A stretch of DNA of 64,000 bases from Candidatus Daviesbacteria bacterium. GTDB taxonomy: Bacteria > Patescibacteriota > Microgenomatia > Daviesbacterales > UBA10151. The stretch covers positions 7,150 to 71,149 of the forward strand of contig JACPKL010000005.1 in NCBI GenBank assembly GCA_016187035.1, in the 5' to 3' direction. This document shows, piece after piece, positions 2,887-61,811 of the stretch (within the stretch, counting starts at the first letter, position 1; each line of letters starts with the position of its first letter). The position numbers were made by a program, and so were the translations under genes. The notes beneath the pieces are model-generated. The model had not been told where the DNA came from. It saw only the letters and a program-made list of their open reading frames with translations, and did not search any database.

Positions 2887-3330
2887 ATGAAATGCCCATT
2901 TTGTCAGAGTAGTTTGTCAAAAGTGATAGATAAAAGAGCAGTTGATAGCCGTGGGGAAATCCGCAGGCGCAGGGAGTGTTTAAAGTGCAGCAGACGCTTC
3001 ACGACTTATGAGACTGTAGCTGAGGTTGAGGTTTTGGTTATTAAAAGAGATGGAAAACGTGAACTGTTTGTGAGAGAGAAATTAGAAAGAGGTTTGAGCA
3101 AGGCTTTGGAAAAAAGACCAGGGATTGACAAGACCACTGAGGTAGTTGATAGAATAGAAGGCCGGATTAGAAATAGAAAGCTATCAGAAATTTCTTCACA
3201 AACTTTGGGCAAGTGGGTCCTTTCAGAACTTAAGAAACTAGATCTGATTGCTTATTTAAGGTTTGCTAGTGTGTACAGGACATTTTCCGATCCAAGAGAC
3301 TTTGCAAAAGAGTTGAAAACACTATCATGA
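2887..3330 (+). CDS. nrdR: Transcriptional repressor NrdR (zinc ribbon + ATP-cone)
   Basis: MKCPFCQS...CLKCSRRFTTYE zinc ribbon followed by an ATP-cone. 147 aa. Its stop overlaps the nrdJ start (ATGA at 3327-3330). Confidence 0.95.
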   Translation: MKCPFCQSSLSKVIDKRAVDSRGEIRRRRECLKCSRRFTTYETVAEVEVLVIKRDGKRELFVREKLERGLSKALEKRPGIDKTTEVVDRIEGRIRNRKLSEISSQTLGKWVLSELKKLDLIAYLRFASVYRTFSDPRDFAKELKTLS

Positions 3331-6300
3331 TAAAAAAAAGACAATATAGACCAACATTACAAATAATTACAGCACCAAAAGTTGGCAGGCCTAAAAAAAC
3401 TAATGGTGAATATGAACCTAATGGAATAGATAAAAATTCGCGTTCATTTGAAACCAGATTTGTTCCAAGATATAAAAAGATCCCTTCTTTGCCCCGAGGA
3501 CTACCCCAACCTGCTTTTTCTGAGAGTTCAAATAAGATTTTAAAAGAAAGATATTTGTTAAAAGGAGGAAATTTAGAAGTTACAGAAACTGTATCTGAAA
3601 GATTTTGGCATATTGCTTATGATATTGCCTCTGCAGATTTTGATTTCTCAGTTCCTGGCAAGCAAGTTTTTGAGACGGCTAAGCTGTTTTATACCATGAT
3701 GGTTAATCAGGAGTTTTTGCCTAATTCCCCTACTATTATGAATGCAGGCAAACAGAACGGATTACAATATTCAGCTTGTTTTGTTTTGCCTGTTGGTGAT
3801 TCCATCGGGGAAATTTTTGATAGCGTTAAGTATGCGGCACAAATCCACAAATCAGGAGGTGGAACCGGTTTTGCATTTTCCCGTCTTAGACCAAAAGACA
3901 GTATTGTTGCCACAACCGGTGGGGTTGCCTCCGGACCGGTCTCGTTTTTAAGAGTATTTAATGCTGCCACTGAAGCTATCAAACAAGGGGGCTGTTTCTC
4001 TGAAGATGCCTTGATTATGACTCATTTAGGTCTAGTCCCAATTAAAGAGATTGTTGAACAAAAAAGGACTTGGTATGTAGCTACTCATTTAGGCTTACAG
4101 CAAGTTACTGCTAAATTTGATAATGGGCAAAAAAAGCTTTATCAGGTGAAAACCCAGGCTGGTTTTACAGTCAAAGTTACAGCTGGGCATAAGTTTTTAA
4201 CAGCTGATAAAATGGGACATTTTTATCTTAAACCTTTATCTGACTTTCAAGTAGATGATCACTTAACGCTTTTGTTGGGAGCTTGGCCGGAAGATATTCC
4301 TTATGCTTTATTAAATACTGCAATCCCACAAAAATCTAAATACTCTTATGGCAGAATAGATATCAACTTGCCAAAACATCTTGATGAGAAATTGGCTTTT
4401 TTAATTGGTGTTTATCATGCTGATGGCTCAAAGATTTCTGATGAATATTCGCCTAATGGTAAGGGATTAAGAGTCGCTGTAGCAGAAAACAGGCCACAAG
4501 ATTTGCTTAAATTGACCAAAACAATAAAAGATATATTCGGATTGGATTGTACAATTACTAAAGGAGATGGAGCTGTCTATAATGTTAATTGTTTCTCCAG
4601 AAGTGTTAATGAGTTTTTAGCCTTGAACGGATTACTAAAAGAATCCTCAGTGGCAGTTACTGTTCCTGATATGATTTTTACTTCACCTAGAAGGGTGATT
4701 GAATCATACATAGCAGGAGTGTTTTTGGGTGACGGGGGAAATAGAGGGGGTAAGGGTGGGTTTAGGATCTCAACTGTTTCTAAAACCTTTGCACAACAGA
4801 TACAGGTATTACTTTTAAATCTAGGTATTGCCTCAAAAATAGCTGTTGAAAATAGACAAAGCAAGAATTGGAGAGATCTCTATAATGTTACCATTAATGG
4901 TAATCGCTTTATGAAAAAGTTTGCTGTTGTGATTTCTCCATATACTGAAAAAGTTAATGACCATCCAGTTTCTCATAAAGACTACGCCTTTAGGTGGCCT
5001 TTTAATTTAACTGAAAAGTATCTTCATTTATCAGGAATTCAAAGTGTTACTCCGGTTGGTAATATCTCTACTACTCAAAAGACAGTAGCATTTTTGCAAC
5101 AAAACGTAGGCTTTATTAATGAACAGGATCGCAATGACATATCACTCCTTGCCTCATGTGTTTCTGACAAAATTGCCTCTATTGAGTATATAGGGAAAGG
5201 TTATGTTTATGATTTAGAAGTGGGTAACACCCATCTTCTATCAGGAAATGGTTTTTATACCTCAAATTCCAGAAGAGGAGCAAACATGGGGATTTTAAGA
5301 ATAGATCATCCTGATATTTTAGAATTTATCAGGTGTAAAGCAGAGCTTGATGATACTAATAAACCAATATTTGAATCTGTAGCGCCGCTTCTGCCTGATG
5401 ATTCGACTAGAGAATATTTTAAGACTTTGCTTTTAGATAAACAGATTTCCAACTTTAACATTTCTTGTGCTATTACAGAAAAATTCATGGAAGCTTTGGA
5501 AAAGGATAAGGATTATGATTTGATTGATCCACATTCAGGTGAGGCTGTTGGTAAATTAAATGCTAGGCAGGTTTTTGATGAGATAGTGGAAAGGGCCTGG
5601 GCTACAGGAGATCCTGGTTTAATCTTTATTGACAGGATAAACAACTCCCCTGCCAATCCTGTACCATCCCTGGAAACTATTGAAAGCACAAATCCGTGCG
5701 GAGAACAGCCTCTGGCATCTTGGGATGCTTGTAACTTGGGATCAATAAACTTGGGTAAATTTGTTAAGGGAGATGGTAGCGGGGTGGATTGGGAAAGACT
5801 TGGGAACACAGTTAAGCTGGCTGTGCACTTTTTGGATAATGTTGTCCAAACTAACCCCTTTACCTTAAAACAGATTTATGATGAGGTACACCAAAATAGA
5901 AGGATAGGGTTGGGGGTAATGGGCTGGGCTGATATGCTGTTTATATTAAAAATTCCTTATAATTCTGAAGAGGCTTTAAAGTTAGCTGAACAGGTGATGC
6001 AGTTTATTAATGAAGAAGGACATAAGATGAGTGAGGATTTAGCTCAAGTGCGCGGGTCTTTTCCTAATTGGTCGAATTCCATCTATGCTGATGGAAACCC
6101 AATCAGAAACTCAACAATTACCACCATTGCTCCTACCGGAACAATTTCTATAATTGGTGATTGTTCTTCTGGAATTGAACCAGTTTTTGCCTTAGCCTAT
6201 ATTCATAAAGCTAAAAGTGTTGGCGATCAGTATAGAATTTTAACAATTGCTAATCAGACTTTTGCAGAGATAGCTAGAGAAAAGGGTTTTTGGTCTGATG

Positions 6301-7133
6301 ATTTAGCTGAAAAAGTTTTAGAAAAAGGTTCTGTGGCAGGGATACCAGAAGTGCCTGAGGAATGGCAAAAGGTTTTTGTAACTGCTCCAGAGATTGATCC
6401 AATTTTCCATGTAAAGATGCAAGCTGCATTTCAAAAATATACTGATAATGGAGTTTCCAAAACAATTAATTTACCAAATTCAGCAACAGTTGATGATGTG
6501 AGGACAGCTTATATGCTCTCGTACCAGACAGGCTGCAATGGCATTACTATTTACAGAGATGGGTCTAAGGCAGTTCAGGTTTTAAATGTTTCATCTGCTT
6601 TACAGAAAACTCAACAAGAAGTTATTCCTGTGGCTGAGAGGCCAATGATACTGCGTGGCAGAACCTATAAAGTATCTACTCCTGTGGGAGAAGCATTCAT
6701 TACTATTAATAGGGATGAGCAGGATCAACCATTTGAAGTATTTGTGACTGTTGGAAAAGGTGGGATGCATACAATGGCAGATGCTGAAGCAATGGGGAGA
6801 TTGGTTTCTTTATCTTTAAGGTTATCCAGAGCTGGTAAAAGTTTACCAAAGGAAGTTGCTCAAAAAATTACTCAGCAGTTAAGAGGAATTGGAGGAGCTT
6901 CAACAGTAGGGTTTGGGAAAAATAGGGTGATGAGTTTAGCTGATGCAATTGCTAAAGTTTTGTCAGAAGATTCGGCCCAGTCATCAACTGCTCAAACAGC
7001 AGAACCGATACCATTAAATTTAACTTCTTCTTCCAAGACCCAGGCAGATTTGTGTCCTGAATGCGGCAGCGCCTCCTTTGTAATGGAAGAAGGCTGTAAA
7101 AAATGCCATAGCTGTGGATACTCAATGTGTTAA
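3327..7133 (+). CDS. nrdJ: Class II (adenosylcobalamin-dependent) ribonucleotide reductase, interrupted by an intein
   Basis: 1268 aa. Has the extein motif KQGG / SRRGANMG split by the insert, TNPCGEQPL, NLGSINL, and a C-terminal Cys-rich zinc ribbon CPECGS...CKKCHSCG. The extein is 843 aa once the insert is removed. Confidence 0.9.
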   Translation: MIKKRQYRPTLQIITAPKVGRPKKTNGEYEPNGIDKNSRSFETRFVPRYKKIPSLPRGLPQPAFSESSNKILKERYLLKGGNLEVTETVSERFWHIAYDIASADFDFSVPGKQVFETAKLFYTMMVNQEFLPNSPTIMNAGKQNGLQYSACFVLPVGDSIGEIFDSVKYAAQIHKSGGGTGFAFSRLRPKDSIVATTGGVASGPVSFLRVFNAATEAIKQGGCFSEDALIMTHLGLVPIKEIVEQKRTWYVATHLGLQQVTAKFDNGQKKLYQVKTQAGFTVKVTAGHKFLTADKMGHFYLKPLSDFQVDDHLTLLLGAWPEDIPYALLNTAIPQKSKYSYGRIDINLPKHLDEKLAFLIGVYHADGSKISDEYSPNGKGLRVAVAENRPQDLLKLTKTIKDIFGLDCTITKGDGAVYNVNCFSRSVNEFLALNGLLKESSVAVTVPDMIFTSPRRVIESYIAGVFLGDGGNRGGKGGFRISTVSKTFAQQIQVLLLNLGIASKIAVENRQSKNWRDLYNVTINGNRFMKKFAVVISPYTEKVNDHPVSHKDYAFRWPFNLTEKYLHLSGIQSVTPVGNISTTQKTVAFLQQNVGFINEQDRNDISLLASCVSDKIASIEYIGKGYVYDLEVGNTHLLSGNGFYTSNSRRGANMGILRIDHPDILEFIRCKAELDDTNKPIFESVAPLLPDDSTREYFKTLLLDKQISNFNISCAITEKFMEALEKDKDYDLIDPHSGEAVGKLNARQVFDEIVERAWATGDPGLIFIDRINNSPANPVPSLETIESTNPCGEQPLASWDACNLGSINLGKFVKGDGSGVDWERLGNTVKLAVHFLDNVVQTNPFTLKQIYDEVHQNRRIGLGVMGWADMLFILKIPYNSEEALKLAEQVMQFINEEGHKMSEDLAQVRGSFPNWSNSIYADGNPIRNSTITTIAPTGTISIIGDCSSGIEPVFALAYIHKAKSVGDQYRILTIANQTFAEIAREKGFWSDDLAEKVLEKGSVAGIPEVPEEWQKVFVTAPEIDPIFHVKMQAAFQKYTDNGVSKTINLPNSATVDDVRTAYMLSYQTGCNGITIYRDGSKAVQVLNVSSALQKTQQEVIPVAERPMILRGRTYKVSTPVGEAFITINRDEQDQPFEVFVTVGKGGMHTMADAEAMGRLVSLSLRLSRAGKSLPKEVAQKITQQLRGIGGASTVGFGKNRVMSLADAIAKVLSEDSAQSSTAQTAEPIPLNLTSSSKTQADLCPECGSASFVMEEGCKKCHSCGYSMC
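3993..5267 (+). mobile_element. Intein with LAGLIDADG homing-endonuclease domain (425 aa) inside nrdJ
   Basis: Starts at Cys (CFSEDALIMT) directly after KQGG. Has block B TAGH, two LAGLIDADG-like motifs (LAFLIGVYHADGS, YIAGVFLGDGG), block F VYDLEVGNTHLL, and ends ...FYTSN followed by +1 Ser (SRRGANMG). Confidence 0.85.
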
Positions 7134-7165: not shown

Positions 7166-7810
7166 TCAAATTTCTTCTAAAACTTGATGTTTTATTTGTT
7201 CTAATCTTTCTCCGTAATCCACCTGGTCTAAGATATATTGTCTATAATCTTGAGGGTTTTTAAAAAAACCTAAAATTTCCTGTTTAGCACAAAAACCATC
7301 CACCTCACCTAAATATTCCTTATAAGAAGACCATTCATAACTTTCTAAATCTTTTACTAAAAGTGAGACTCTAGGATTCAGATGAATGTATCTGGAAAGA
7401 TGAATTAATTGTTCGTCTTTTTCTATAAGAACAGATTTGAATTCCCCTTGCAGGAGATGACCAATCCTATTATATTTGGCATTGTAATACTTTGTGTAAC
7501 TGTTGCTTATTTTACCCACAAATTCTGTGATTCCTCCATCCACTGACTGTCTGAGTAGCAGATGAAAATGGTTAGGCATCAGACAATAGGAAACAATATC
7601 TACAATCTTTTTAGATGGATCTGGTCTAAAAGTTTGAAATTGAGAAAAATTAGAAAATTTTGGTTTTGGCCCCGAATGCTGATAATAATTTAAAGTTTTT
7701 ATAAATCTTTGGTAATCTCTTCTGCTACTAAAAATTAACCTTTTTTCATTACCACGGTTATAAACATGATAAAAGTAACCATTGGCGAAGGGAAAAATTC
7801 TTGATGGCAT
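7166..7810 (-). CDS. REP-associated / IS200-like Y1 (HUH) transposase
   Basis: YHVYNRGN, HUH motif MPNHFHLLL and catalytic-Tyr region RYIHLNP. 214 aa. Confidence 0.85.
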   Translation of the reverse strand: MPSRIFPFANGYFYHVYNRGNEKRLIFSSRRDYQRFIKTLNYYQHSGPKPKFSNFSQFQTFRPDPSKKIVDIVSYCLMPNHFHLLLRQSVDGGITEFVGKISNSYTKYYNAKYNRIGHLLQGEFKSVLIEKDEQLIHLSRYIHLNPRVSLLVKDLESYEWSSYKEYLGEVDGFCAKQEILGFFKNPQDYRQYILDQVDYGERLEQIKHQVLEEI

Positions 7811-7905: not shown

Positions 7906-8433
7906 ATGGATAAGGGATTAGTGATTGTTTATACTGGTGAAGGAAAAGGGAAAACTACTGCTGCTTTGGGATTAGTGCTGAGGGCTTCTGGTTACAACAA
8001 AAGATGTTTTGTTGTTCAATTTGGCAAAGCTTGGTTTACAGGAGAGCTTGTTGGAATTAAAAAGCTAGGCACCAAGGTGAAAATAATCCAAGGCGGTAAA
8101 GGTTTTTTAAACATCTTAGGGAGTAAGATTTCCAAAACAGAGCATAAAAAAGCAGCTAATCAGACTTATGATATATTATATAAGGAAGTTATGTCCAATA
8201 ATTGGGATATAGTGGTAGCTGATGAGATTATTGGTGCAGTCTCATCTAAAGTCTTATCTATTACAAGACTTTTACAGCTTATCAATGATAAACCTTCCCA
8301 ATTAGATTTAGTATTAACAGGCCATCATGCTCCAAAGGAGTTGATTAAATTGGCTGATCTAGTAACCGAGATGAGGGAAGTCAAACATCCGTACCGAGTG
8401 GGAATTTTAGCAAAAAAAGGGATTGACTTTTAG
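7906..8433 (+). CDS. cobA: Cob(I)alamin (cob(I)yrinic acid a,c-diamide) adenosyltransferase, CobA/BtuR type
   Basis: 175 aa. P-loop YTGEGKGKTTAALG followed by VVQF.K, the typical CobA/CobO/BtuR layout. Confidence 0.8.
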   Translation: MDKGLVIVYTGEGKGKTTAALGLVLRASGYNKRCFVVQFGKAWFTGELVGIKKLGTKVKIIQGGKGFLNILGSKISKTEHKKAANQTYDILYKEVMSNNWDIVVADEIIGAVSSKVLSITRLLQLINDKPSQLDLVLTGHHAPKELIKLADLVTEMREVKHPYRVGILAKKGIDF

Positions 8434-37211: not shown

Positions 37212-38141
37212 TTATTTTATTGCGTGGTAGTAAATCTGGTGCAAAAAGCGTGAGACATCCCAAGAAATTAAGAGGAAAATAATAAAGAAAACAAGATATC
37301 GAAGACAGGGTTGTTTTATCCTTTTGGAAATCCAAGCAAAGCAAAAATAGAAACCAACACCGCTTATGATAATTAATGGAATTACCATACTATATGAGGT
37401 AAGGGAGATTTGTAAATTATTTGATAAAGCTGTAGGTATTGGGGCAATTAGCAACCAAATTATAATTGGTTTATAGTCATTAGATGTTTTTATAATATAA
37501 ACTAATCCTAAAGATATTAAGATAGAATCGAATAAATACATCAGTCCCATTTCGGAAATTCTATTTTTTTGATAAAGATCTCCATCAAGGAATAAAGTTT
37601 GGAAGGAGAAATGATTGGAATAATTATTGAAGACAACATTAATGTAATTTGTTAATTTATTATGAGAAACTCTTAGTATTAAACTGCTTGAACCGTGTTC
37701 TCTTATCTGCTCATCTGTTAACCAAACAAGTTGTGGATTTTGAAATATACTCCTGTATGTAGTTTGCATAAAATTAGATGGAAATAAAATGAAAAGAATA
37801 CAAATTGAAATACTTACAAAAAAGATAATAGAATTCTGATATAAGTATTTTATTAAGAGAGTCATGATTATAAGGACAATAATTAACATTAGATTAACTG
37901 CAAATCCTTCTTTTGATAAAAAAATATGCCAGGGAGAAATTGAGAGGAATAAGGTTGAGAAAAGATGAATTAAGGTCCTTTGTTTAAATATTGTGTTTAT
38001 AAATAACCAAAATAAGACAATTGAAACAATATTTAAAGAAAAAGATGAGATATTAATAACCGGATCAATTTGAAGAAGGTAATATAATCTTATTAATACT
38101 GATATTAAGAGAATAATTAATATTAAGAAAATCTTTTTCAT
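37212..38141 (-). CDS. Polytopic membrane protein related to the core of the adjacent GT39-like enzyme but lacking its N-terminal catalytic loop
   Basis: SISPWHIFLSKEGFAVNLML parallels AFSPSQIIFSRGAWEANTSL in the 38138-39718 protein. 309 aa. 4-nt overlap with the upstream gene. Confidence 0.5.
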   Translation of the reverse strand: MKKIFLILIILLISVLIRLYYLLQIDPVINISSFSLNIVSIVLFWLFINTIFKQRTLIHLFSTLFLSISPWHIFLSKEGFAVNLMLIIVLIIMTLLIKYLYQNSIIFFVSISICILFILFPSNFMQTTYRSIFQNPQLVWLTDEQIREHGSSSLILRVSHNKLTNYINVVFNNYSNHFSFQTLFLDGDLYQKNRISEMGLMYLFDSILISLGLVYIIKTSNDYKPIIIWLLIAPIPTALSNNLQISLTSYSMVIPLIIISGVGFYFCFAWISKRIKQPCLRYLVFFIIFLLISWDVSRFLHQIYYHAIK

Positions 38142-39718
38142 TCGAATTTTAAGAATTTATATATTGTAAAATTATCTAAGTCTTTGATTGTATCTACAAC
38201 TTTATAGTTTAAATTATTCACATCCGGTATTTTGGAAGATGGCAAAATATATAAATCATCTAATTTGGGTTTATAATTATTCCAATCGATCTTATCGAAT
38301 ACAATTTTCCTGCTTGTTTCAATAGTTAAATTGCGACCGAATAAAAGGAAGAAAATATAAGGTCGATCAGGTCCATCAGCAATATGAATTTTCCTAAAAT
38401 TAGATGTAGTAGAGTTAATTTTGGAAATCATTTGTTTATATCCATACTGCCAAGCACCATTCTTTTTAGAAGCATGGGCAAAATACTGATCAATAAAATA
38501 CATATAACTTCCAAGATAAATAATTATAGATATTACAAAGATACAATAGATTAGTCTCGAATTTTTGTTTTTTTTGAAATATTGATAAAATTCAAATGCC
38601 CCAAGGGATTCAATTATTATTAAGGGGATAAACATTAGAAGGGAGCGAACAAAATTTACTGACTCAATTGTTAATGAAGATGGTATTGGGGATAATACTA
38701 ACCATAAAAATAAGAAGCCTCTTTGCTTGGGTAGTTTTAATCTTATTAACTTAATCAGGCCAAGTATTACAAAGATGCCATCGAATAAAATAAAAGGGCC
38801 CATATTTGGCGGTGTATGCTGTGGATTTAAATCCCCCTTAACAAATAAAGTAGAAAGAGTAAAATGTTCTGACCAGCGCCACAGTATTGACCTTAAATAC
38901 ACTAAAAATTGATTATGATACAAAATATTAATAAAATTGTGATTACTTTCCCCGCTTTGCGATAAGATTGAATTTATATATGTTTGCGGAGCTATATTAT
39001 TAATAAGACTTAATGAGTTTATTCTTGATGATTTATTATTAAAAAATGACAGAAGGACAGGGAAGGAAATTACTAAAGCGATCATTAAGCTTAATACAAT
39101 AATAGTTTTATAATAATTAAATTTACGGAATTCTTTATAGTAAATAGTAGTTAACACAATTAAAATTAATATTGTTGATACTTTAGCACCATGATAGGTG
39201 AGAAAGGTTAAGGAGAAAAAGACAGTTGAAATCAATAAGGATTTAGGTTTAGTAAATGATTTGAGAAAGAAATAGATACCAAATAAGGTAAACGTCAAAG
39301 ATGTATTTGCTTCCCATGCTCCTCTTGAAAATATAATTTGTGAAGGAGAGAATGCTGTAAAAAACGCTGCGTAAGCAGAAATAACTTTATTAGCAAATAA
39401 TTGGTTAGTTATTAAATAAACTAAAAATATGGTAAGTATCCCTGAAATTGCCGAGAATAGTCTAATTGTTGTCTCATTAATTCCTAGAATATTTATTATT
39501 GGGATAGTTAAATATATATAAAGTCCTGGTTTCCAATCTTCAAATGATTGAAAAAGTAAAGGGAAAAAGCGGCCATATTCATCTTTACCTGTGGTTAAAA
39601 TTGAATACGCATTATATCCTAATGCAGCCTCGTCATTTCTTAAATGGGGTGGCATAATTTCTAATCCCCAAAATCTTAGGATTAATATGAATATTATTAA
39701 TATTATAATTTTTTTCAC
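38138..39718 (-). CDS. GT39/PMT_2 (ArnT-like) membrane glycosyltransferase
   Basis: N-terminal loop PPHLRNDEAALGYNAYSI (DEA..GY motif). 526 aa polytopic. Confidence 0.7.
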   Translation of the reverse strand: MKKIIILIIFILILRFWGLEIMPPHLRNDEAALGYNAYSILTTGKDEYGRFFPLLFQSFEDWKPGLYIYLTIPIINILGINETTIRLFSAISGILTIFLVYLITNQLFANKVISAYAAFFTAFSPSQIIFSRGAWEANTSLTFTLFGIYFFLKSFTKPKSLLISTVFFSLTFLTYHGAKVSTILILIVLTTIYYKEFRKFNYYKTIIVLSLMIALVISFPVLLSFFNNKSSRINSLSLINNIAPQTYINSILSQSGESNHNFINILYHNQFLVYLRSILWRWSEHFTLSTLFVKGDLNPQHTPPNMGPFILFDGIFVILGLIKLIRLKLPKQRGFLFLWLVLSPIPSSLTIESVNFVRSLLMFIPLIIIESLGAFEFYQYFKKNKNSRLIYCIFVISIIIYLGSYMYFIDQYFAHASKKNGAWQYGYKQMISKINSTTSNFRKIHIADGPDRPYIFFLLFGRNLTIETSRKIVFDKIDWNNYKPKLDDLYILPSSKIPDVNNLNYKVVDTIKDLDNFTIYKFLKFE

Positions 39719-39757
39719 CTGTTCTATTTTATTTTATATTGTTTTATATTAAAACTA

Positions 39758-41227
39758 ATGAATTTCTTAACTAAAAATTATGATAAGCTAATTTTAGTAT
39801 TACTACTGTTGATATATTTAAAACTAAATATAAACCTGCTTTTAGTTGAACCACCAATCTGGCCGGATGAAGCATATATTGCAGATGTTGCAAATAATAT
39901 TTCTTATGAAGGAAGAGCTGGTACGGATTTATGGGGAGATACCGTAATAAATATAAAAAAGTCGTTATATTGGTACCCTCCTATTTTTGTGAATTTATTA
40001 GCTATTTGGTTTAAAGTTTTCGGATTATCTATTATTAATCAACGGTTTTTATCTGTAATGATCGGGATGTTATTTTTAGTAATTCTTTATCTACTGGGCC
40101 AAAAGATTTTTTCTGAAGATTCTTGTAAACATAAGCTTCTGAGTTTGGGATTAATTTTGCCAATAATCTTCGATAACAGTTTTCTAAAAGCATCGAAAAT
40201 GGGCAGACCCGAAATGATGGTTGTATTATTAGTTTTTATAGCTATATATATCTATCAACATTTAAGAGAATCCAAAGACAAAGAAATTCTTTATGTAGCT
40301 ATAGGTATTATTTTAGGATTTGCTACATTAACTCATCTTGTCGCCAGTCTTTTCTTTCTAATATTTTTAGGTGATTTTTTTATTTTTAAAAAAGAAGCCT
40401 TAAGAAATAGAGGATTTTATTTATTAATAATAAGCTATATTTTCTCGTTACTTCCTTGGTTAATCAGTATACTTCCAAATTATGGTATATTTTTGCAACA
40501 AATCAGTTTACAAAGTTCATTCAGGAATTTAGTGCCTTCCCATATTGAATCTATCTTTCGTTATTATCCTATTGAACAAAAAATAATTTATACGCTTTAC
40601 TTATTTCTATCTGGTACCTGTTTTTTGTTACTTCTGAGGAAAAAAACACTAAAATATTTTTTTCTAAATTTAGGACTTTTAGCTGGTTGGTTTATTTGCT
40701 TGGAAGGTAAATTAGAATGGTATTCGGTTTACATTGTAAGTTTTTTGTATACTCTGGTTTTAGTTATTGTTAAAAGTTCTTTTAAAGTATTTTCAATCTT
40801 AACATTTGTTTTGTTATTAACTCTTTTTTTTGTTAACATAAAAATTTATTCCGATTCACTAAAGTTTTATAAAGACAAAAGGGATGTATATTTTACATTT
40901 GGTCAAGAAATTAAAGATAAAATCGTTCAAGGAAAAACAGTTTATCTTTCTACCACTCCTGATTTATATTTTGTTCTAAAAGATAGAAACCCATTATATG
41001 AATTTCCATCAGTCCAACCAATCCGAGATAAATTTATTAGTTTACTCAATGATAGTGATTACTTAGTAATAAACTTCCATTTAGAACGCCTTTTTGTAGG
41101 TAATCTACTGGATAAATATATAGAGCTTAATAAATCGAGAGAATATCAGATAGCTACTGATAATTTATACCAAGCACAAATTATAGAATTAGTTCCAAGA
41201 AATATTAGGAAATTACCTAAATTATGA
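39758..41227 (+). CDS. GT-C-type (ArnT-like) membrane glycosyltransferase
   Basis: PPIWPDEAYIADVANN first-loop motif. 489 aa polytopic. Confidence 0.65.
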   Translation: MNFLTKNYDKLILVLLLLIYLKLNINLLLVEPPIWPDEAYIADVANNISYEGRAGTDLWGDTVINIKKSLYWYPPIFVNLLAIWFKVFGLSIINQRFLSVMIGMLFLVILYLLGQKIFSEDSCKHKLLSLGLILPIIFDNSFLKASKMGRPEMMVVLLVFIAIYIYQHLRESKDKEILYVAIGIILGFATLTHLVASLFFLIFLGDFFIFKKEALRNRGFYLLIISYIFSLLPWLISILPNYGIFLQQISLQSSFRNLVPSHIESIFRYYPIEQKIIYTLYLFLSGTCFLLLLRKKTLKYFFLNLGLLAGWFICLEGKLEWYSVYIVSFLYTLVLVIVKSSFKVFSILTFVLLLTLFFVNIKIYSDSLKFYKDKRDVYFTFGQEIKDKIVQGKTVYLSTTPDLYFVLKDRNPLYEFPSVQPIRDKFISLLNDSDYLVINFHLERLFVGNLLDKYIELNKSREYQIATDNLYQAQIIELVPRNIRKLPKL

Positions 41228-42759
41228 TTAAGGATAAGGTCTTTTATATATTATTGTTTATTTTCTTATTTGCGATAATTTTACGTTTTCTTTATTTTCC
41301 TAAGGATATTTATTTTGGAATAGACCAAGCTCTTGGCTCTTTCGCGGTTAAAGAAATATTAGAAGGACACCCTAAGATAGTTGGACCTCCAACAACATTT
41401 CCAGGATTACGACACGGTGTTTTGTACTACTATTTATATACTCCTTTCTATTGGTTAGGCGGAGGGGATCCCAGTTTAGCTGCAGCTTTTTTGAGGGTAG
41501 CGAACGCACTTGGAGTTTTTTTAATATTTATAGTTGGAGCAATTTTATTTAATAAGTATGTAGGAATTATTGCTAGTTTATTGTTTGCTATTTCTTTTGA
41601 ACAAACTCAGTTTGCTCTATATTTTAATCATCCATCGTTAGCAGTTATAAGTGTTTTAATAATGTTCTTGGGATTAAGTATTTTAATCTTTAAGAAGAGT
41701 AAAATCGGTTTCATTATTGCTTTGTTAGGTTTAGGGTTATCGATTCAATTAGAGTTTATTCTAACTTATTTAATTGTTCCTTTCTTAATAACTTTAATTT
41801 GTTTTAGAAAATCATTTCCAAATATAAATCTTAAAATTTTTGTTTCAGGATTGTTTATTTTCCTTCTAACTATATCCTCATTTATTGCAGCAGAATTAAA
41901 ATTTAACTTCAGATCAGTTCATCTATTGCCAAAGCTTTTGTTTAGCGGTGAGCCAAAATCTTTAGTAAAAATAATTTCAACTTACGTCTTCGAAATAGGA
42001 CAAATAATTAAATTCAATTTGACTGGTTCATCTGAATTTGCTCCATTTGCGGGGATAATACTTCTTGTATTGCTTATCTTATTAAGTATTTCTAAGATAA
42101 AGAGGCAAGCTTTTTTCTTACAGATTTGGTTTTTCTCATTGTTAATAATTTATATAGTTGGGGGAGGAGAAAGTTTAAATGTAGACGTTTTACAATATCA
42201 TGGAAATGCAGGAGTTTCATCAAGTCTGATTATTTTTGTTTCCTATCTTCTTTGGCGTTTAGGTAAAAAAATAAAATTTCTAGCTTTTTTAGTGGTTATA
42301 TTAATAATAATTGCAAACTTCCGTCTGATAGAGAAAATTAATCCTTATGGAACTATGCCACAACTTAATGCTCAGTCATTTATGTTGTTATCGGATGAGA
42401 TAAAAGTATTAGATTATATTTATCAAGACGCAAATAATAAATCATTTGCTGTAAAAGCAATTTCTTTACCTTTTTATATTAATTCTACCTGGAGTTATCT
42501 TTTTGAATGGTATGGTAATAAAAAATATGGATACTTGCCAATTTGGGGTGGTAAAAATGCATCAGGGTATCCAGGAAATCTGTTAGTAGAAGATGCACAA
42601 GATAAATTACCTGACAAAAGATATTTAATTATAGAACCTACACGAGGTATTCCTGAACACCTAATTAATGATTATTTAAGAGAAGAAAATTATTTCTCTG
42701 ATAGTATTCAAGAGAAAGAGATAGGTCGTTTTAAAGTTCAAGTTAGGTTTAGAAAATAA
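41224..42759 (+). CDS. GT-C-type membrane glycosyltransferase-like protein (paralogue A)
   Basis: ILRFLYFPKDIYFGIDQALGSFAVKEIL. C-terminal domain with WSYLFEWYGNKKYGYLP. 511 aa. Confidence 0.6.
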   Translation: MIKDKVFYILLFIFLFAIILRFLYFPKDIYFGIDQALGSFAVKEILEGHPKIVGPPTTFPGLRHGVLYYYLYTPFYWLGGGDPSLAAAFLRVANALGVFLIFIVGAILFNKYVGIIASLLFAISFEQTQFALYFNHPSLAVISVLIMFLGLSILIFKKSKIGFIIALLGLGLSIQLEFILTYLIVPFLITLICFRKSFPNINLKIFVSGLFIFLLTISSFIAAELKFNFRSVHLLPKLLFSGEPKSLVKIISTYVFEIGQIIKFNLTGSSEFAPFAGIILLVLLILLSISKIKRQAFFLQIWFFSLLIIYIVGGGESLNVDVLQYHGNAGVSSSLIIFVSYLLWRLGKKIKFLAFLVVILIIIANFRLIEKINPYGTMPQLNAQSFMLLSDEIKVLDYIYQDANNKSFAVKAISLPFYINSTWSYLFEWYGNKKYGYLPIWGGKNASGYPGNLLVEDAQDKLPDKRYLIIEPTRGIPEHLINDYLREENYFSDSIQEKEIGRFKVQVRFRK

Positions 42760-42818
42760 TCTAAATTTTTTCTCGAATTTGGACAATAAAGGTACCGAAC
42801 TTTTTTTCATCCATTACT

Positions 42819-43113
42819 TTAGTAAAATATCCTTCCATAAGGATTAATAGTGAGAATAGAAAGCAGATTATTTAAAATAACAGCCAAAATAATTAGGGAA
42901 CCTAAAAAGATTTTACCTAAAGAGAGCAGTTTATCTATAGAATAAGCGCTAATAAGCAGTAAACAATATCCCCCATGGTTTATTTGCAAAAAGATAAAGA
43001 GCAAGTCCGAGATAAAATAATAAAACATCAGGGAAATAAAGGAAACGGATGATAATAGCTACAAGAAAGGTAAAAAGTAAACAAAATGAATTATGATGAA
43101 AAAATTTACCCAT
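42819..43113 (-). pseudogene. Fragment of a further GT-C paralogue (frameshifted)
   Basis: Manual translation from ATG 43113 gives MGKFFHHNSFCLLFTFLVAIIIRFLYFPDV..., like the N-termini of neighbouring GT-C genes. It stops after 54 codons and continues in another frame as the 69-aa ORF 42819-43028. Confidence 0.45.
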
Positions 43114-43208
43114 TATAAATTCTATTAATATTATTTTACACTGTTAGGAAGACTAAATTGACTAGTCAAATAAATTATGGCAAGATTTTCTAGCTGATAA
43201 CCTTACGA

Positions 43209-44729
43209 ATGAATAGAAATACATCACTAATTATTATAGCGATTCTGCTTGTTGGCATTTTGTATCGTCTGATGCTAACAGCTAATGGTAATTTTCTATT
43301 CAATATGGATAATGCTCGGGATTTTGTAGATGTTAGAGAAATGGTGGAGTTAAAAAAGTTAAGATTAACAGGGCCTACGTCTGCTATAGACGGTTTATAT
43401 AATGGTCCGCTTTGGTACTACTTTTTGGCTATTTCCTACACCTTTGGTAAAGGTGATCCTTATGGAGCTATTATTTTTGAAATAATCCTTTGGGCTATAG
43501 GCGGATATTTTTTATTGAAGTTAGTGGGAAACTTCGGGAGATATTTAGTAATACCAATTGGTTTAATATGGGTTGCTTCAAACTACATTGTTTTGACTAA
43601 CCTTTACTCTTTTAATCCAAATCCTGTTACCTTACTGACACCGCTTTTTATTTATGGTCTCTTTAGATATTCAAAGTCATTAAAAAGTATGTGGATTATA
43701 TTAACCTGGTCTTTAGCTGGAGCATTTTTTAATTTTGAAATGAATTTCGGGATATTTACTCCTTTGATAATTATTATTTCTTTATTTTTGCTAAATAAAA
43801 ACGCTTTTAAAGATAAGTATTTTTGGATAGGAGTAATAATTTTTACATTAACACTTTTACCTCAATTATTATTTGATTTGAGACATCAATTTATTATGAG
43901 TAAAGCAATTTTTAAATTTTTGTCAAATAATCAAAATGTTAAATTTAATTTGATTTCTAGGACACAAATCATTCTGCAAAGCTTCTTCAGTGTTTTTCAG
44001 GCAACCCTTATGAATAATAGACTAATTACATGGGCAGTAATATTACTGGCAATTCCAATAGTAAAGAATTTTTTGCGAAGAGGTAAAAAAGAATCAATAT
44101 TTATAGTCTCTCTCCTTTATATAGTAATTCCTTTTTTAGGATACTTAATCATTTCAGTAACTGTTAATCCTTGGCATTTAGGAGGACCAGCTGTTGCGCT
44201 TTTAATATTAATTGCTGTCATAATTTCTCGGTTATGGCAGATTAATATTACCGGTAGATTAGTATCATTGATATTATCTTTGAGTTTATTTTATTTCTCT
44301 GTATTTAATATATTAAATTTTTTTGTTAATGATTTAGGAAAAGAAAATATGGATCCGTCACTTTATAAAAATGAAATAAAGGCTATAGATTATGTTTACC
44401 AAAAAGCAAATGGTAAAAATTTTAAAGTCTATATATATCTACCTTCGGTTTATGATTACCCTTATCAATATTTATTTTGGTGGTATGGGCAAAAAAAATA
44501 TGGGTACATTCCTAAAGAATATGTTTACTCCCCTAATAAACCACAATATATACCAAGTCAAGAAAAGTTTCAGGGAGAAAAGAGTAATTTTTCTGAATTA
44601 GTATTTTTAATTAAAGAACCAGACCGGATTAAGATGAGGCAGGCATGGGAGAATGATTATAAAGATATGGAGATGTTATCTAAAGAAATGGTGGGTCCAA
44701 TAGAGGTGGAAGTGAGAAGAGAATTATGA
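43209..44729 (+). CDS. GT-C-type membrane glycosyltransferase-like protein (paralogue B)
   Basis: NMDNARDFVDVREMV first loop. C-terminal YQYLFWWYGQKKYGYIP matches paralogue A. 506 aa. Confidence 0.6.
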   Translation: MNRNTSLIIIAILLVGILYRLMLTANGNFLFNMDNARDFVDVREMVELKKLRLTGPTSAIDGLYNGPLWYYFLAISYTFGKGDPYGAIIFEIILWAIGGYFLLKLVGNFGRYLVIPIGLIWVASNYIVLTNLYSFNPNPVTLLTPLFIYGLFRYSKSLKSMWIILTWSLAGAFFNFEMNFGIFTPLIIIISLFLLNKNAFKDKYFWIGVIIFTLTLLPQLLFDLRHQFIMSKAIFKFLSNNQNVKFNLISRTQIILQSFFSVFQATLMNNRLITWAVILLAIPIVKNFLRRGKKESIFIVSLLYIVIPFLGYLIISVTVNPWHLGGPAVALLILIAVIISRLWQINITGRLVSLILSLSLFYFSVFNILNFFVNDLGKENMDPSLYKNEIKAIDYVYQKANGKNFKVYIYLPSVYDYPYQYLFWWYGQKKYGYIPKEYVYSPNKPQYIPSQEKFQGEKSNFSELVFLIKEPDRIKMRQAWENDYKDMEMLSKEMVGPIEVEVRREL

Positions 44730-58825: not shown

Positions 58826-61006
58826 ATGAAAACTCAAGCCCTGTCAGTTTTTTTTCCTTCTGTTAACGAAGAAGGCAATATTGAGATAACGGTTGGAAAG
58901 GCAGATAAAGTCTTAAAAAGATTAGATTTAGATTATGAAATTATCGTTGTAAACGATGGTTCAACAGACCATACTCGCACTATTGCTGAAAACTTAGCCA
59001 AGAAGAACTCAAAAATTAGAGTAATAAATCATCAAAGGAATTTAGGTTATGGAGAGGCTCTAAAGTCAGGATTTTATAATGCTAAATATGACACTATAGT
59101 TTATACAGATGGAGATGGGCAATTTGATTTTTCAGAGGTAGTAAAATTTTTAGAAAATATTGAGGATCATGATTTAGTTATAGGTTACAGAATTAAAAGA
59201 CAAGATTCATTTTTAAGGAAACTTTTTGGTAAAGGATGGAGATTATCTCTCTTAATCTTTTTTGGTTTAAGGCTTAAAGACGTGGACTGTGGATTTAAAA
59301 TGATCAAAAGAAAAGTTTTAGAAACTATCCCTCATCTGGAATCTCAAAGAGGAGCTATGATTAATGCGGAGTTAGTAATAAAGACAAAAAAATTCGGATT
59401 TAACGTTACTCAAGTTGGAGTTAATCACTATCCACGTTTAGCCGGTAAACCAACTGGCGCCAATATAAGAGTAATTATAAAATCTTATCTAGATTTAATT
59501 AGATTATGGTGGAAATTAAAGAATCAAAAGTTGTTATTTATGGCTTTCCTGTTAATCCTATCTTTAGCTACGTTTTTAAGGTTTTTTAAATTATCTGAGT
59601 ATATGACTTTCTTAGGAGATGAAGGAAGAGATGCCTTAGTTGTGAAAGATATGTTAACGAATTATCACTTTCCTTTAATTGGTCCTCCTACATCAGTAGG
59701 AAATATTTATCTCGGACCCCTTTATTATTATATGATGGCTTTTTCTATGATGATTTTCTGGCTAAATCCGATAGCTGCAGCTATGATGAATGCTTTAGTT
59801 GGAGTAGCGGTTGTAGTCTTAATTTACTGCTTAGGGAAAATTTGGTTTAACAAAGCGGCTGGTTTAATAGCGTCTTTCTTTTATGCAATTTCTCCGATAA
59901 CAATAATATATTCTAAATCATCTTGGAATCCGAATCCTGCTCCATTTTTTGCACTGATCTCAATGTTGGGACTTTATAAAGTAAATAAAACCGGTAATTT
60001 TTTATGGTTAATATTAACTGGAATTATGGTTGCAGCTGCTTTGCAGATGCATTATTTGGCCCTAATTCTAATACCTATTTGTGCAGTTATTTGGTTATAT
60101 GAAATACTCTTTAGGATTCAAAGAAAAGAACAAATTAGACACTTTTTCATGGGGACATCTTTAGGAATTTTATTCTTTCTTCTTGTGATGTCTCCTCTAT
60201 TTTGGTTTGATTTAAGGCATAATCTCCTAAATTACCGGGGAATTATAGAACTAATGTCAAGTGACAGTGCTATAAAGGGGAATTTATTTAATAATTTATT
60301 AAAAATTCCTAATCTTTATTCCTATAATTTGATAGGAAGGTATATTGCTGGAGAAAATCTTATCTTGACTTGGATTTTATCCTTAGTTATTTTAATACCA
60401 TTTGCTGCATCAATTTACCAAAGAGTTAGATCCAATAAAATTATTTGGCCTTACTTTGTTTTAGGAGTATGGTTATTTGTTGGTCTTCTAGGTTTATCTT
60501 TTTATCAGCAAGGTATTTACGACCACTATTTAGGGTTTATGAATCCTGTCCCTTTTTTGCTTTTAGGATCACTAGCAACAGTGAAATATAAAAAAAAGAT
60601 TACTAAAGTTTTATTATTAAGTCTAGTTCTGCTTCTAGCTTATGTTAATTTACAGAAAAATCCTTTAAACAACAAACCCAACAATCAACTTAAAAGAACT
60701 CAAGATGTTGCGCGGTTTGTAATTAATAAAACAGAAGGAAAGGATTTTAATTTTGCATTAATCGCTGAAAGTAATTACGATGCAGCTTATCAATTCTATC
60801 TTGATCAGTATGATCATAAACCAAAACAAGTTCCGTTCGATATCACAGATCAATTATTTGTAGTTTGCGAAGATTCTGTTTGCGACCCTACACATAATGC
60901 TAAATATGAAGTAGCAGCTTTTGGTTGGTCAAAAATTGATTGGATGGAGGAATATTCAGGTGTTAAACTTTACAAACTTATACATAATCCAAGCGGCAAG
61001 CCATAA
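58826..61006 (+). CDS. Fusion of a GT2 polyprenyl-phosphate sugar synthase and a GT-C membrane transferase-like domain
   Basis: N-terminus LSVFFPSVNEEGNI, IIVVNDGSTDHT, TDGDGQFD (GT2, aa 1-230). From about aa 236 (nt 59531) a polytopic domain with FLGDEGRDALVVKDM first loop and a soluble C-terminal domain. 726 aa. Confidence 0.75.
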   Translation: MKTQALSVFFPSVNEEGNIEITVGKADKVLKRLDLDYEIIVVNDGSTDHTRTIAENLAKKNSKIRVINHQRNLGYGEALKSGFYNAKYDTIVYTDGDGQFDFSEVVKFLENIEDHDLVIGYRIKRQDSFLRKLFGKGWRLSLLIFFGLRLKDVDCGFKMIKRKVLETIPHLESQRGAMINAELVIKTKKFGFNVTQVGVNHYPRLAGKPTGANIRVIIKSYLDLIRLWWKLKNQKLLFMAFLLILSLATFLRFFKLSEYMTFLGDEGRDALVVKDMLTNYHFPLIGPPTSVGNIYLGPLYYYMMAFSMMIFWLNPIAAAMMNALVGVAVVVLIYCLGKIWFNKAAGLIASFFYAISPITIIYSKSSWNPNPAPFFALISMLGLYKVNKTGNFLWLILTGIMVAAALQMHYLALILIPICAVIWLYEILFRIQRKEQIRHFFMGTSLGILFFLLVMSPLFWFDLRHNLLNYRGIIELMSSDSAIKGNLFNNLLKIPNLYSYNLIGRYIAGENLILTWILSLVILIPFAASIYQRVRSNKIIWPYFVLGVWLFVGLLGLSFYQQGIYDHYLGFMNPVPFLLLGSLATVKYKKKITKVLLLSLVLLLAYVNLQKNPLNNKPNNQLKRTQDVARFVINKTEGKDFNFALIAESNYDAAYQFYLDQYDHKPKQVPFDITDQLFVVCEDSVCDPTHNAKYEVAAFGWSKIDWMEEYSGVKLYKLIHNPSGKP

Positions 61007-61011
61007 TTAAT

Positions 61012-61767
61012 ATGAAAGAATTAACCATAATTATACCTTCATATAATGAGTCAGCTAATTTAAAAAGGGGAGTATTAGAAGGAGTATCAAGCTATTTAGA
61101 AAAACTAAAGATTAATTATGAAGTATTGATAGTCGATGATGGTTCTTCGGACAATTCAGTAGAGTTAGTTAAAAAGTATATTTCCAAAATGGGGACTTCC
61201 TCTAGAGGTGAAAATCTTAAATTAATACAAAATAAACACGGCGGCAAAGCTAAGGCAGTGCTGACTGGGATGGAAAAAGCAAGCGGGGAAACAGTCTTGT
61301 TTACAGATATGGATCAAGCTACCCCTATAAACCAATTAGAAAAATTTATTCCTAAGTTCAAAGAAGGATACGATATTGTAATTGGATCAAGAAAAGGAAG
61401 AAAAGGGGCGCCTATGATTAGGAAAATAGCAGCGTGGATCTTTTCGATCTTAAGAGGATTAATTTTAGGACTTCCTTTTAAAGATACTCAATGTGGTTTT
61501 AAAGCCTTTTCTAAGAATTCAGTCAATAAAATACTTCCTAAGATTAGAAGTGAATGGGGTGAATTACACTTCAGAGGAGGGGCAGTAAATGCAGGATTTG
61601 ATGTTGAGCTTCTTTACCTATCTAAAAAGTATGGTCTAAAAATCGCAGAGGTTGGAGTAGAATGGAATTATGTTGATACAGAAAGAGTGCAAGTTGTTAA
61701 AGATGCTTTAGCAGCAATTTATGATATGTTGAGAATCAGAATGAATGATTTCCGTGGTAAGTATTAA
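61012..61767 (+). CDS. GT2 glycosyltransferase (dolichyl/polyprenyl-phosphate beta-glucosyltransferase-like)
   Basis: LTIIIPSYNESANL, VLIVDDGSSDNS, TDMDQATP. 251 aa. Confidence 0.8.
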   Translation: MKELTIIIPSYNESANLKRGVLEGVSSYLEKLKINYEVLIVDDGSSDNSVELVKKYISKMGTSSRGENLKLIQNKHGGKAKAVLTGMEKASGETVLFTDMDQATPINQLEKFIPKFKEGYDIVIGSRKGRKGAPMIRKIAAWIFSILRGLILGLPFKDTQCGFKAFSKNSVNKILPKIRSEWGELHFRGGAVNAGFDVELLYLSKKYGLKIAEVGVEWNYVDTERVQVVKDALAAIYDMLRIRMNDFRGKY

Positions 61768-61811
61768 TTTCTGAACTTGCCTCTGCTGACTAGCAGACGT
61801 AAAATGGTAGG

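Follow-up and report, generated by a model that had tools for sequence, protein, structure and literature searches.

The nrdJ gene on a Candidatus Daviesbacteria contig (JACPKL010000005.1) raises the question of why a conserved segment of a class II adenosylcobalamin-dependent ribonucleotide reductase (RNR), NrdJ, is split by 425 extra codons, and whether an insert that ends in Ser-Asn could still leave the protein and spread between genes. We analysed a stretch of 64 kb from this contig (the window; coordinates are those of the window, and nrdJ lies on the + strand). A class 1 intein with its own LAGLIDADG homing endonuclease, lodged in loop 2 of NrdJ in this member of the Microgenomates and the candidate phyla radiation (CPR), is a highly probable answer. 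The anatomy of the element, its family membership, its insertion site, its sporadic distribution and the co-variation of its residues were established, and from them we infer splicing, a role for Lys67 and endonuclease activity.

The nrdJ precursor open reading frame (ORF) of the window extended from 3327 to 7133 and encoded 1268 aa plus a stop. The precursor scored 991.7 bits with PRK08665 and matched the Pfam families Ribonuc_red_lgN, Ribonuc_red_lgC (split) and TSCPD. On translation, the insert occupied exactly 425 in-frame codons with zero stops (3993-5267), began with CFSEDALIMT, ended with HLLSGNGFYTSN and was bordered by ...ATEAIKQGG before and SRRGANMG after, confirming to the base the 425-aa interruption of a conserved NrdJ segment reported in the initial annotation. 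The N-extein (3327-3992) had 222 aa and ended with Gly at position -1, as supported by an ungapped alignment with T. maritima NrdJ over the junction. The C-extein (5268-7133; 621 aa plus stop), delimited by translation and profiles, opened with the +1 Ser nucleophile (5268-5270) and carried the NPCGE catalytic-Cys motif, the TSCPD domain and a C-terminal CxxC...CxxC ribbon. Cys1, a TAGH block B, two LAGLIDADG motifs, a block F, a terminal Asn and the +1 Ser had also been listed in that annotation, and all were recovered at those places. In the family alignment, block A (CFSEDALIMT, 3993-4022) supplied the Cys1 nucleophile (3993-3995). Block B (GFTVKVTAGHKFLT, 4161-4202) held Thr63 (B:7, 4179-4181), His66 (B:10, 4188-4190) and Lys67 (B:11, 4191-4193), with the TxxH motif reading T63-A-G-H66 at 4179-4190. 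Block F (YVYDLEVGNTHLLSG, 5202-5246) held Asp407 (F:4, 5211-5213) and His414 (F:13, 5232-5234), both within YVYDLEVGNTHLL when the motif was read from the insert. Block G (NGFYTSN, 5247-5267), placed by translation and the family alignment, ended with the penultimate Ser424 (5262-5264) and the terminal Asn425 (5265-5267). LAGLIDADG motif 1 (LAFLIGVYHADGS, 4392-4430) aligned with motif 1 of PI-PkoII and of the TliVMA intein, and motif 2 (ESYIAGVFLGDGG, 4701-4739) lay within the LAGLIDADG_3 match. Both motifs ended with an acidic residue, LAFLIGVYHA-D144-GS (Asp144, 4422-4424) and ESYIAGVFLG-D247-GG (Asp247, 4731-4733).

Profiles, homologues and a predicted structure identified this segment as a class 1 splicing domain with a nested LAGLIDADG endonuclease. 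The insert alone passed the cut-offs of Pfam Intein_splicing (PF14890; 48.3 bits, cut-off 35.8), LAGLIDADG_3 (PF14528; 60.5 bits over intein residues 237-311, cut-off 22.5) and Hom_end (PF05204; 22.6 bits, cut-off 21.1), and NCBIfam intein_Nterm (TIGR01445) was matched with 35.6 bits (cut-off 24.5). The Intein_splicing match spanned residues 15-419, showing the split pattern expected of an endonuclease nested inside a HINT domain. The initial annotation had tied its call to profile searches for Hint and LAGLIDADG domains, and in both the curated thresholds were passed, so Hint similarity is present. The top homologue of the intein scored 581 bits (E = 1e-169), and a sequence search of the PDB matched PI-PkoII, PI-PfuI, the TliVMA intein and the DnaE and DnaB mini-inteins. 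Scores of this order lie far beyond chance. An AlphaFold2 model of the intein was built from a 7-sequence alignment; its mean predicted local distance difference test (pLDDT) score was 65.9, with most of the splicing domain at 80-95 and residues 96-124 and 328-387 below 50. Foldseek with this model retrieved the TliVMA intein (5e-19), PI-PfuI (3e-14), PI-PkoII, PI-SceI and the single-chain LAGLIDADG enzyme I-DmoI (template-modelling score ~0.7, normalised to the target). The insert is a class 1 intein, as seen from Cys1, TxxH, the F:4 Asp and F:13 His, the Asn/Ser end (a slash marks the splice junction throughout), the profiles above cut-off and its absence from orthologues; the penultimate His (G:6) that is usual but not obligatory in this class is replaced by Ser424. 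A class 3 intein, which has no N-terminal nucleophile and relies on Trp B:12, Cys F:4 and Thr G:5, was ruled out, as the window intein has Cys1, with Asp407 at F:4 and Phe68 at B:12. A bacterial intein-like domain was ruled out by Cys1, the F:4 Asp and the +1 nucleophile. An Rfam scan of the window found one tRNA only and nothing bearing on the intein.

Removal of the insert gave an 843-aa spliced NrdJ. TIGR02504 (NrdJ_Z) matched this protein in one stretch, residues 69-661 to model positions 2-606 of 606 with 694.7 bits (cut-off 399.95), and the match was broken in two when the insert was present. With PRK08665 the spliced protein scored 1018.2 bits (cut-off 961). It matched T. maritima NrdJ (1xje) with E = 4.5e-121, and extein residues 147-248 aligned without a gap to T. 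maritima residues 130-231, straight over the junction. The predicted restoration of a collinear 843-aa enzyme was thus borne out by the single TIGR02504 stretch and by collinearity with T. maritima NrdJ and 92 intein-free orthologues. The -1 Gly corresponds to T. maritima residue 205 and the +1 Ser to residue 206, inside K202-Q203-G-S-R-R207-R-G-A. In E. coli, loop 2 comprises residues 292-301, and mutagenesis primers encode C-S-Q294-G-G-V-R298-G-G-A (PMC4728125); by motif, the QGG/SRRGA junction falls between the equivalents of E. coli Gly296 and Val297. The intein separates Gln220 from Arg224, the equivalents of E. coli Gln294, which selects pyrimidines, and Arg298, which is essential for binding all substrates. 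Because these two residues are parted, the unspliced precursor would have no functional specificity loop. The comparison with intein-free NrdJ advised in the initial annotation therefore placed the site in loop 2 but did not give it a name in the style of InBase (RIR1-x), as no RNR site names are given in PMC2814812, PMC4760082 or PMC3653736; the site is described here by its residues. Residues 1-68 of NrdJ (3327-3530; MIKKRQYRPTLQIITAPKVGRPKK...) were rich in Lys, Arg and Pro and lay outside every RNR profile, TIGR02504 beginning at residue 69. The orthologues ranged from 791 to 911 aa in length, leaving this N-terminal extension or the start codon uncertain.

The intein belongs to a family centred on this loop. 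A word-indexed search yielded 8 relatives only, all in RNRs. All 7 that covered the C-terminal junction ended ...HLLSG[ND]G[FI]YTSN/SRR, and P0003 stopped before the junction. An exhaustive HMMER search returned 3262 proteins at E <= 1e-3; at E <= 1e-30 there were 102 representatives, and 79 matches covered the whole intein. Forty-seven of the 79 interrupted the same peptide bond (site A, ..G[G/A] / [S/T]RRGA), and of these 40 had a penultimate Ser, 4 a His and 3 some other residue. A further 26 lay one residue upstream (site B, ..GQ/SGRRGA), where His was penultimate in 24 and Ser in 2. The remaining few interrupted GVA/SGPVSF, 21 residues upstream, or bonds 2-3 residues downstream. Cys1, His66, Asp407, His414 and Asn425 were invariant in 47/47 same-site inteins; across the 73 related inteins Cys1 and the block-B His never varied, and the Thr position was Thr or Ser throughout. 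CPR bacteria, Anaerolineae and viral contigs of IMG/VR had all kept the Ser-Asn end, and their reading frames were intact. The initial annotation had called this end non-canonical; it does depart from the general intein consensus, but it is the majority state at the site, and judging from the aligned relatives it is the norm for loop 2 and not a defect. We also observed inteins 32-35% identical to that of the window, with a Ser-Asn/Ser end (TSN or VSN), in P0028, P0040, P0031 and P0075 at GVA/SGPVSF and, 2-3 residues downstream of site A, at QRR/SAAL and HGR/SGAL; these homologues suggest that the lineage made ectopic moves within nrdJ.

The residue after the block-B His varied together with the penultimate residue. 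In the family alignment, B:11 was Lys or Arg in 42/46 sequences with a non-His G:6 versus 2/28 with a His G:6, i.e. 42 with a basic residue and no His, 26 with another residue and His, and 6 exceptions (Fisher test p = 1e-13, uncorrected for shared ancestry). Switches within clades pointed the same way. At site A, three of the four His-bearing inteins had His-Pro, not His-Lys, at B:10-B:11, and at site B both Ser-bearing inteins had His-Lys in a clade that otherwise has His-Ile or His-Val. The string ATKDHKFMT is printed in papers that also give the tail of the Npu C-intein, and we take it to be block B of the Npu DnaE N-intein. In the Ssp DnaE intein the penultimate residue is Ala. For that intein, Arg at B:11 has been proposed to assist Asn cyclisation without a penultimate His (PMC4031507, citing Sun et al. 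2005). By analogy, Lys67 together with the block-F His414 most likely takes over the role of the missing penultimate His in Asn cyclisation. A broader claim concerns a large family of RNR loop-2 inteins not characterised before, in which Ser(G:6)-Asn with Lys at B:11 would represent a co-evolved alternative way of catalysing Asn cyclisation, while the sister family at GQ/SGRRGA pairs His(G:6) with a hydrophobic B:11; we hold this claim tentatively, at somewhat less than an even chance.

These features fit a splicing route of the following kind. The 1268-aa precursor would be unable to form loop 2 while the intein stood between the Gln220 and Arg224 sides. Cys1 would undergo an N-S acyl shift aided by Thr63 and His66, and attack of the +1 Ser on the thioester would give a branched ester. 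Cyclisation of Asn425, in which Lys67 (B:11) and His414 would substitute for the penultimate His as proposed for Arg B:11 of Ssp DnaE, would release the intein, and an O-N shift would produce the 843-aa active enzyme with its loop segment restored. Autocatalytic excision and extein ligation are thus predicted for this intein. As DNA, the element would spread by endonuclease cleavage of intein-free nrdJ alleles where loop 2 is encoded, followed by repair that copies it in; the element itself probably entered the lineage horizontally from another Microgenomates NrdJ clade.

The distribution of the insert was sporadic. A search with the spliced extein gave the 120 closest NrdJ proteins (the window protein and 119 at 68-81% identity), and 92 of the 120 were free of inteins. 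The initial annotation would have yielded to an equivalent domain in homologous NrdJ proteins; these 92 do without the segment. The site was read through as KQGG-x-RRGA in 119/119 orthologues, x being Thr in 111, Ser in 7 and Ala in 1, and no insert was found at the loop-2 site in any of them, so that only the window NrdJ was occupied among the 120. A syntenic intein-free locus (L001; gene order PPIase-NrdR-NrdJ-CobA-Lon-PPase) encoded an identical peptide at the site, including Ser at +1, with synonymous differences only and an overall DNA identity of ~75%. The 72-bp intein-free nrdJ site is TTTAATGCTGCCACTGAAGCTATCAAACAAGGGGGCTCCAGAAGAGGAGCAAACATGGGGATTTTAAGAATA, with the junction at GGC/TCC, and L001 has a variant of it. 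No co-conversion footprint could be claimed, because L001 already shares the amino acids at the site, +1 Ser included.

The inteins most similar to that of the window were not in its nearest host proteins. P0001 and P0009 carried the closest inteins, 61% identical, in flanking exteins only 31-45% identical to the window extein, while the closest extein with a same-site intein (P0022, 58%) held an intein only 37% identical. In the GTDB species set, scanned with alignment A1, relatives at 48-61% occurred in metagenome-assembled genomes of the Microgenomates group, Levyibacteriota and Gottesmanbacteria, all in the other NrdJ clade; a GTDB scan with the single intein sequence gave no matches. IMG/VR contigs held same-site relatives at 26-33% identity, and a tblastn search of 50,697 cultured-phage records for a known phage vector returned two distant matches only (24% identity; a terminase and a hypothetical protein). 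An intein better conserved than its host gene, in one of 120 orthologues, indicates that the element moved horizontally, homing to a target that is conserved, and the sequences point to acquisition from another Microgenomates NrdJ clade.

Several observations weigh against this overall account. Among known inteins the nearest shares only 61% identity, too remote to name the donor or to date the invasion. Composition was of no use as a sign of foreign origin, as the gap between intein and extein was too small (GC 35.4% vs 39.0%; GC at third codon positions 25% vs 29%). The 24-position NCBIfam intein_Cterm model gave 14.2 bits, just below its cut-off of 15.6, because the penultimate His is missing. 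With an AlphaFold2 confidence that is moderate, the evidence for the endonuclease fold is not strong on its own. Finally, two clades supply most of the association of B:11 with G:6, and the switches inside clades that speak for co-evolution number only about five.

The explanation that survives best beside the favoured one is that the intein splices but its endonuclease is inactive, making it a fixed, vertically inherited passenger that is no longer mobile; we regard this as a serious possibility, although short of even. Endonuclease decay is common in the family. The acidic residue of LAGLIDADG motif 1 was Asn (GNG) in 21/47 same-site and 8/26 neighbouring-site inteins, while motif 2 kept its Asp (46/47 at the same site), and the relatives include natural mini-inteins of 137 and 142 aa (P0007, P0008) without an endonuclease. 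The GNG-type relatives could be decaying endonucleases or single-active-site (nicking) enzymes. The distance to the nearest relative and the low-confidence AlphaFold2 segments in and around the endonuclease would also suit a passenger. However, the window intein retains both Asp144 and Asp247, has no stops or frameshifts, and has the same 425-aa length as eight of its closest relatives, and its single occupancy together with the incongruence of intein and extein shows mobility in the not-too-distant past. The retention of both acidic residues, unlike in the 21 relatives with Asn in motif 1, indicates that the endonuclease may still be active, a matter that we consider about evenly balanced.

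A second explanation, for which we see only a slender chance, is that the intein serves as a conditional switch, e.g. one sensitive to redox state or nucleotides, which would gate RNR maturation and the supply of deoxyribonucleoside triphosphates (dNTPs) in a small-genome bacterium. In its favour, the intein lies within the specificity loop, an allosteric element of an enzyme that is essential, conditional splicing is documented for other inteins (e.g. Pho RadA, PMC4513877), and iron loading of Aquifex R2 is improved by its intein (PMC8772380). No sequence feature points to conditional control, however, most close orthologues do without the intein, and the distribution is that of a selfish element.

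That the intein is degenerate and does not splice, with Ser in place of His blocking Asn cyclisation and nrdJ being effectively a pseudogene or a source of inactive precursor, is in our estimation very improbable. A penultimate His normally aids Asn cyclisation, changing a non-His residue to His improves splicing in some inteins (PMC4031507), and the shortfall of the intein_Cterm score is in keeping with such a defect. By contrast, 40/47 same-site inteins, from CPR bacteria, Chloroflexi and viral contigs, end in Ser-Asn; their ORFs are all intact and their catalytic residues never vary, a degree of conservation that indicates purifying selection on splicing. The extein is also fully intact and scores above the equivalog cut-off. 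The initial annotation was right that some inteins show a non-His penultimate residue: ~5% of functional inteins have one, His at F:13 or G:6 is dispensable in some (PMC4031507), and the Npu DnaE intein, which splices very fast and very efficiently, ends GFIASN/CF (PMC6086869 Table 3). The weakest explanation, a native lineage-specific NrdJ domain, has nothing in its favour but the in-frame position and was ruled out with hardly a residue of doubt by the 92/120 orthologues that are collinear over the site without the segment, by the uninterrupted gene of L001, by HINT and LAGLIDADG profiles above threshold and by homologues that are all bounded by Cys1 and Asn/Ser.

Read as a class 1 homing intein, the element can be set beside known systems. 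The Microgenomates same-site inteins (P0001, P0009; L002-L009, L020) share the ..QGG/SRRGA site, the 425-aa architecture at 48-61% identity, Cys1, TxxHK, two LAGLIDADG motifs, the HLLSGNGFYTSN/S ending and an intact ORF; they differ in host, which is another NrdJ clade with exteins 31-45% identical to that of the window, and none occurs in Daviesbacteria-type NrdJ. The split DnaE inteins of Npu and Ssp are likewise class 1, have no penultimate His, and have a basic residue after the block-B His and the Asp and His of block F. Similarity between DnaE inteins (PDB 7qil, 2keq, 4kl5) and the N-terminal splicing region of the window intein was weak (E = 4e-6 to 9e-6). The Npu and Ssp inteins differ in being naturally split, without an endonuclease, with Cys at +1 and with DNA polymerase III alpha as host. 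PI-PfuI, the RNR intein of Pyrococcus furiosus (PDB 1dq3), and the TliVMA intein (PDB 7qss) resemble the window intein in their large size and nested two-motif LAGLIDADG endonuclease. The host of PI-PfuI is also a class II RNR, a likeness at the level of the host protein, whereas the TliVMA intein sits in another host protein. Identity to both is only 16-20%, and their extra DNA-binding or stirrup regions were not confidently modelled in the window intein.

Other inteins in Daviesbacteria-type NrdJ share the host family (exteins 68-81% identical), LAGLIDADG, sites in catalytically important motifs and a sporadic spread. They differ in their sites and in ending with the canonical His-Asn, and none is closely related to the window intein. 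One, of ~460 aa, interrupts GGG/TGFAF and ends IHN/T (9 proteins, including P0158, P0196, P0224 and P0238); the other, of ~367 aa, interrupts TNP/CGEQ and ends SHN/C (18 proteins, including P0161, P0163 and P0206). The TNP/CGEQ site directly precedes the catalytic Cys, and P0253 has a 147-aa mini version there.

Around nrdJ, the gene for NrdR (Zn-ribbon and ATP-cone; 2887-3330) lay directly upstream, its stop overlapping the nrdJ start (ATGA, 3327-3330). An AT-rich palindrome, TATACAATATATTGTATA (2813-2835), was seen ~60-75 bp upstream of nrdR beside TTGACA, and resembles a candidate NrdR box overlapping a promoter. Downstream, a gene for a CobA/CobO/BtuR ATP:corrinoid adenosyltransferase (7906-8433, +; PF02572, 184.6 bits) began ~770 bp beyond nrdJ. 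A 214-aa ORF on the - strand (7166-7810), of the IS200-like Y1 transposase family (PF01797, 35.1 bits), stood between nrdJ and cobA/btuR, where L001 has no gene. Since L001 lacks both the transposase-like gene and the intein, the window nrdJ locus has two insertions relative to it. The adjoining of cobA/btuR and nrdJ in both loci fits a local supply of adenosylcobalamin. The cobalamin dependence of NrdJ, and its activity after splicing, are predicted, with indirect support from the nearby CobA/BtuR gene and the upstream NrdR gene. None of the other ORFs of the window that were checked, the ten largest, encoded a second RNR, and it is reasonable to suppose that the dNTP supply of this organism depends on splicing of the NrdJ intein. 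Farther away, several paralogous genes for PMT_2-type (dolichyl-phosphate-mannose/ArnT-like) glycosyltransferases were clustered at 38138-44729 and 58826-63311, and two ~500-aa ORFs (41224-42759 and 43209-44729) had no Pfam match.

RNR inteins are commonplace: bacteria have 211 and archaea 43, and only DnaB has more (PMC4760082). Against this richness the window intein is an ordinary, apparently intact one that would not surprise specialists. An identical protein is in NCBI on a 279,519-bp Candidatus Daviesbacteria contig (MBI2596793.1), where it is named adenosylcobalamin-dependent ribonucleoside-diphosphate reductase only; the record could gain the intein coordinates and the 843-aa mature product, which has little import beyond annotation. 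The wider interest lies in the family, in which the state of the penultimate residue tracks a basic B:11 over a large natural set, giving comparative support to the known compensation model. If the co-evolved arrangement is true, it would generalise the DnaE model of splicing without a penultimate His, and the mini-inteins P0007 and P0008 would be candidate fast-splicing tools with a Ser +1 nucleophile. The RNR specificity loop 2 emerges as a multi-register hot spot, with homologous inteins at at least three adjacent peptide bonds. The NrdJ genes of CPR bacteria and Microgenomates appear to swap inteins across deeply divergent NrdJ clades, and the NrdJ family of Daviesbacteria is targeted at three sites.

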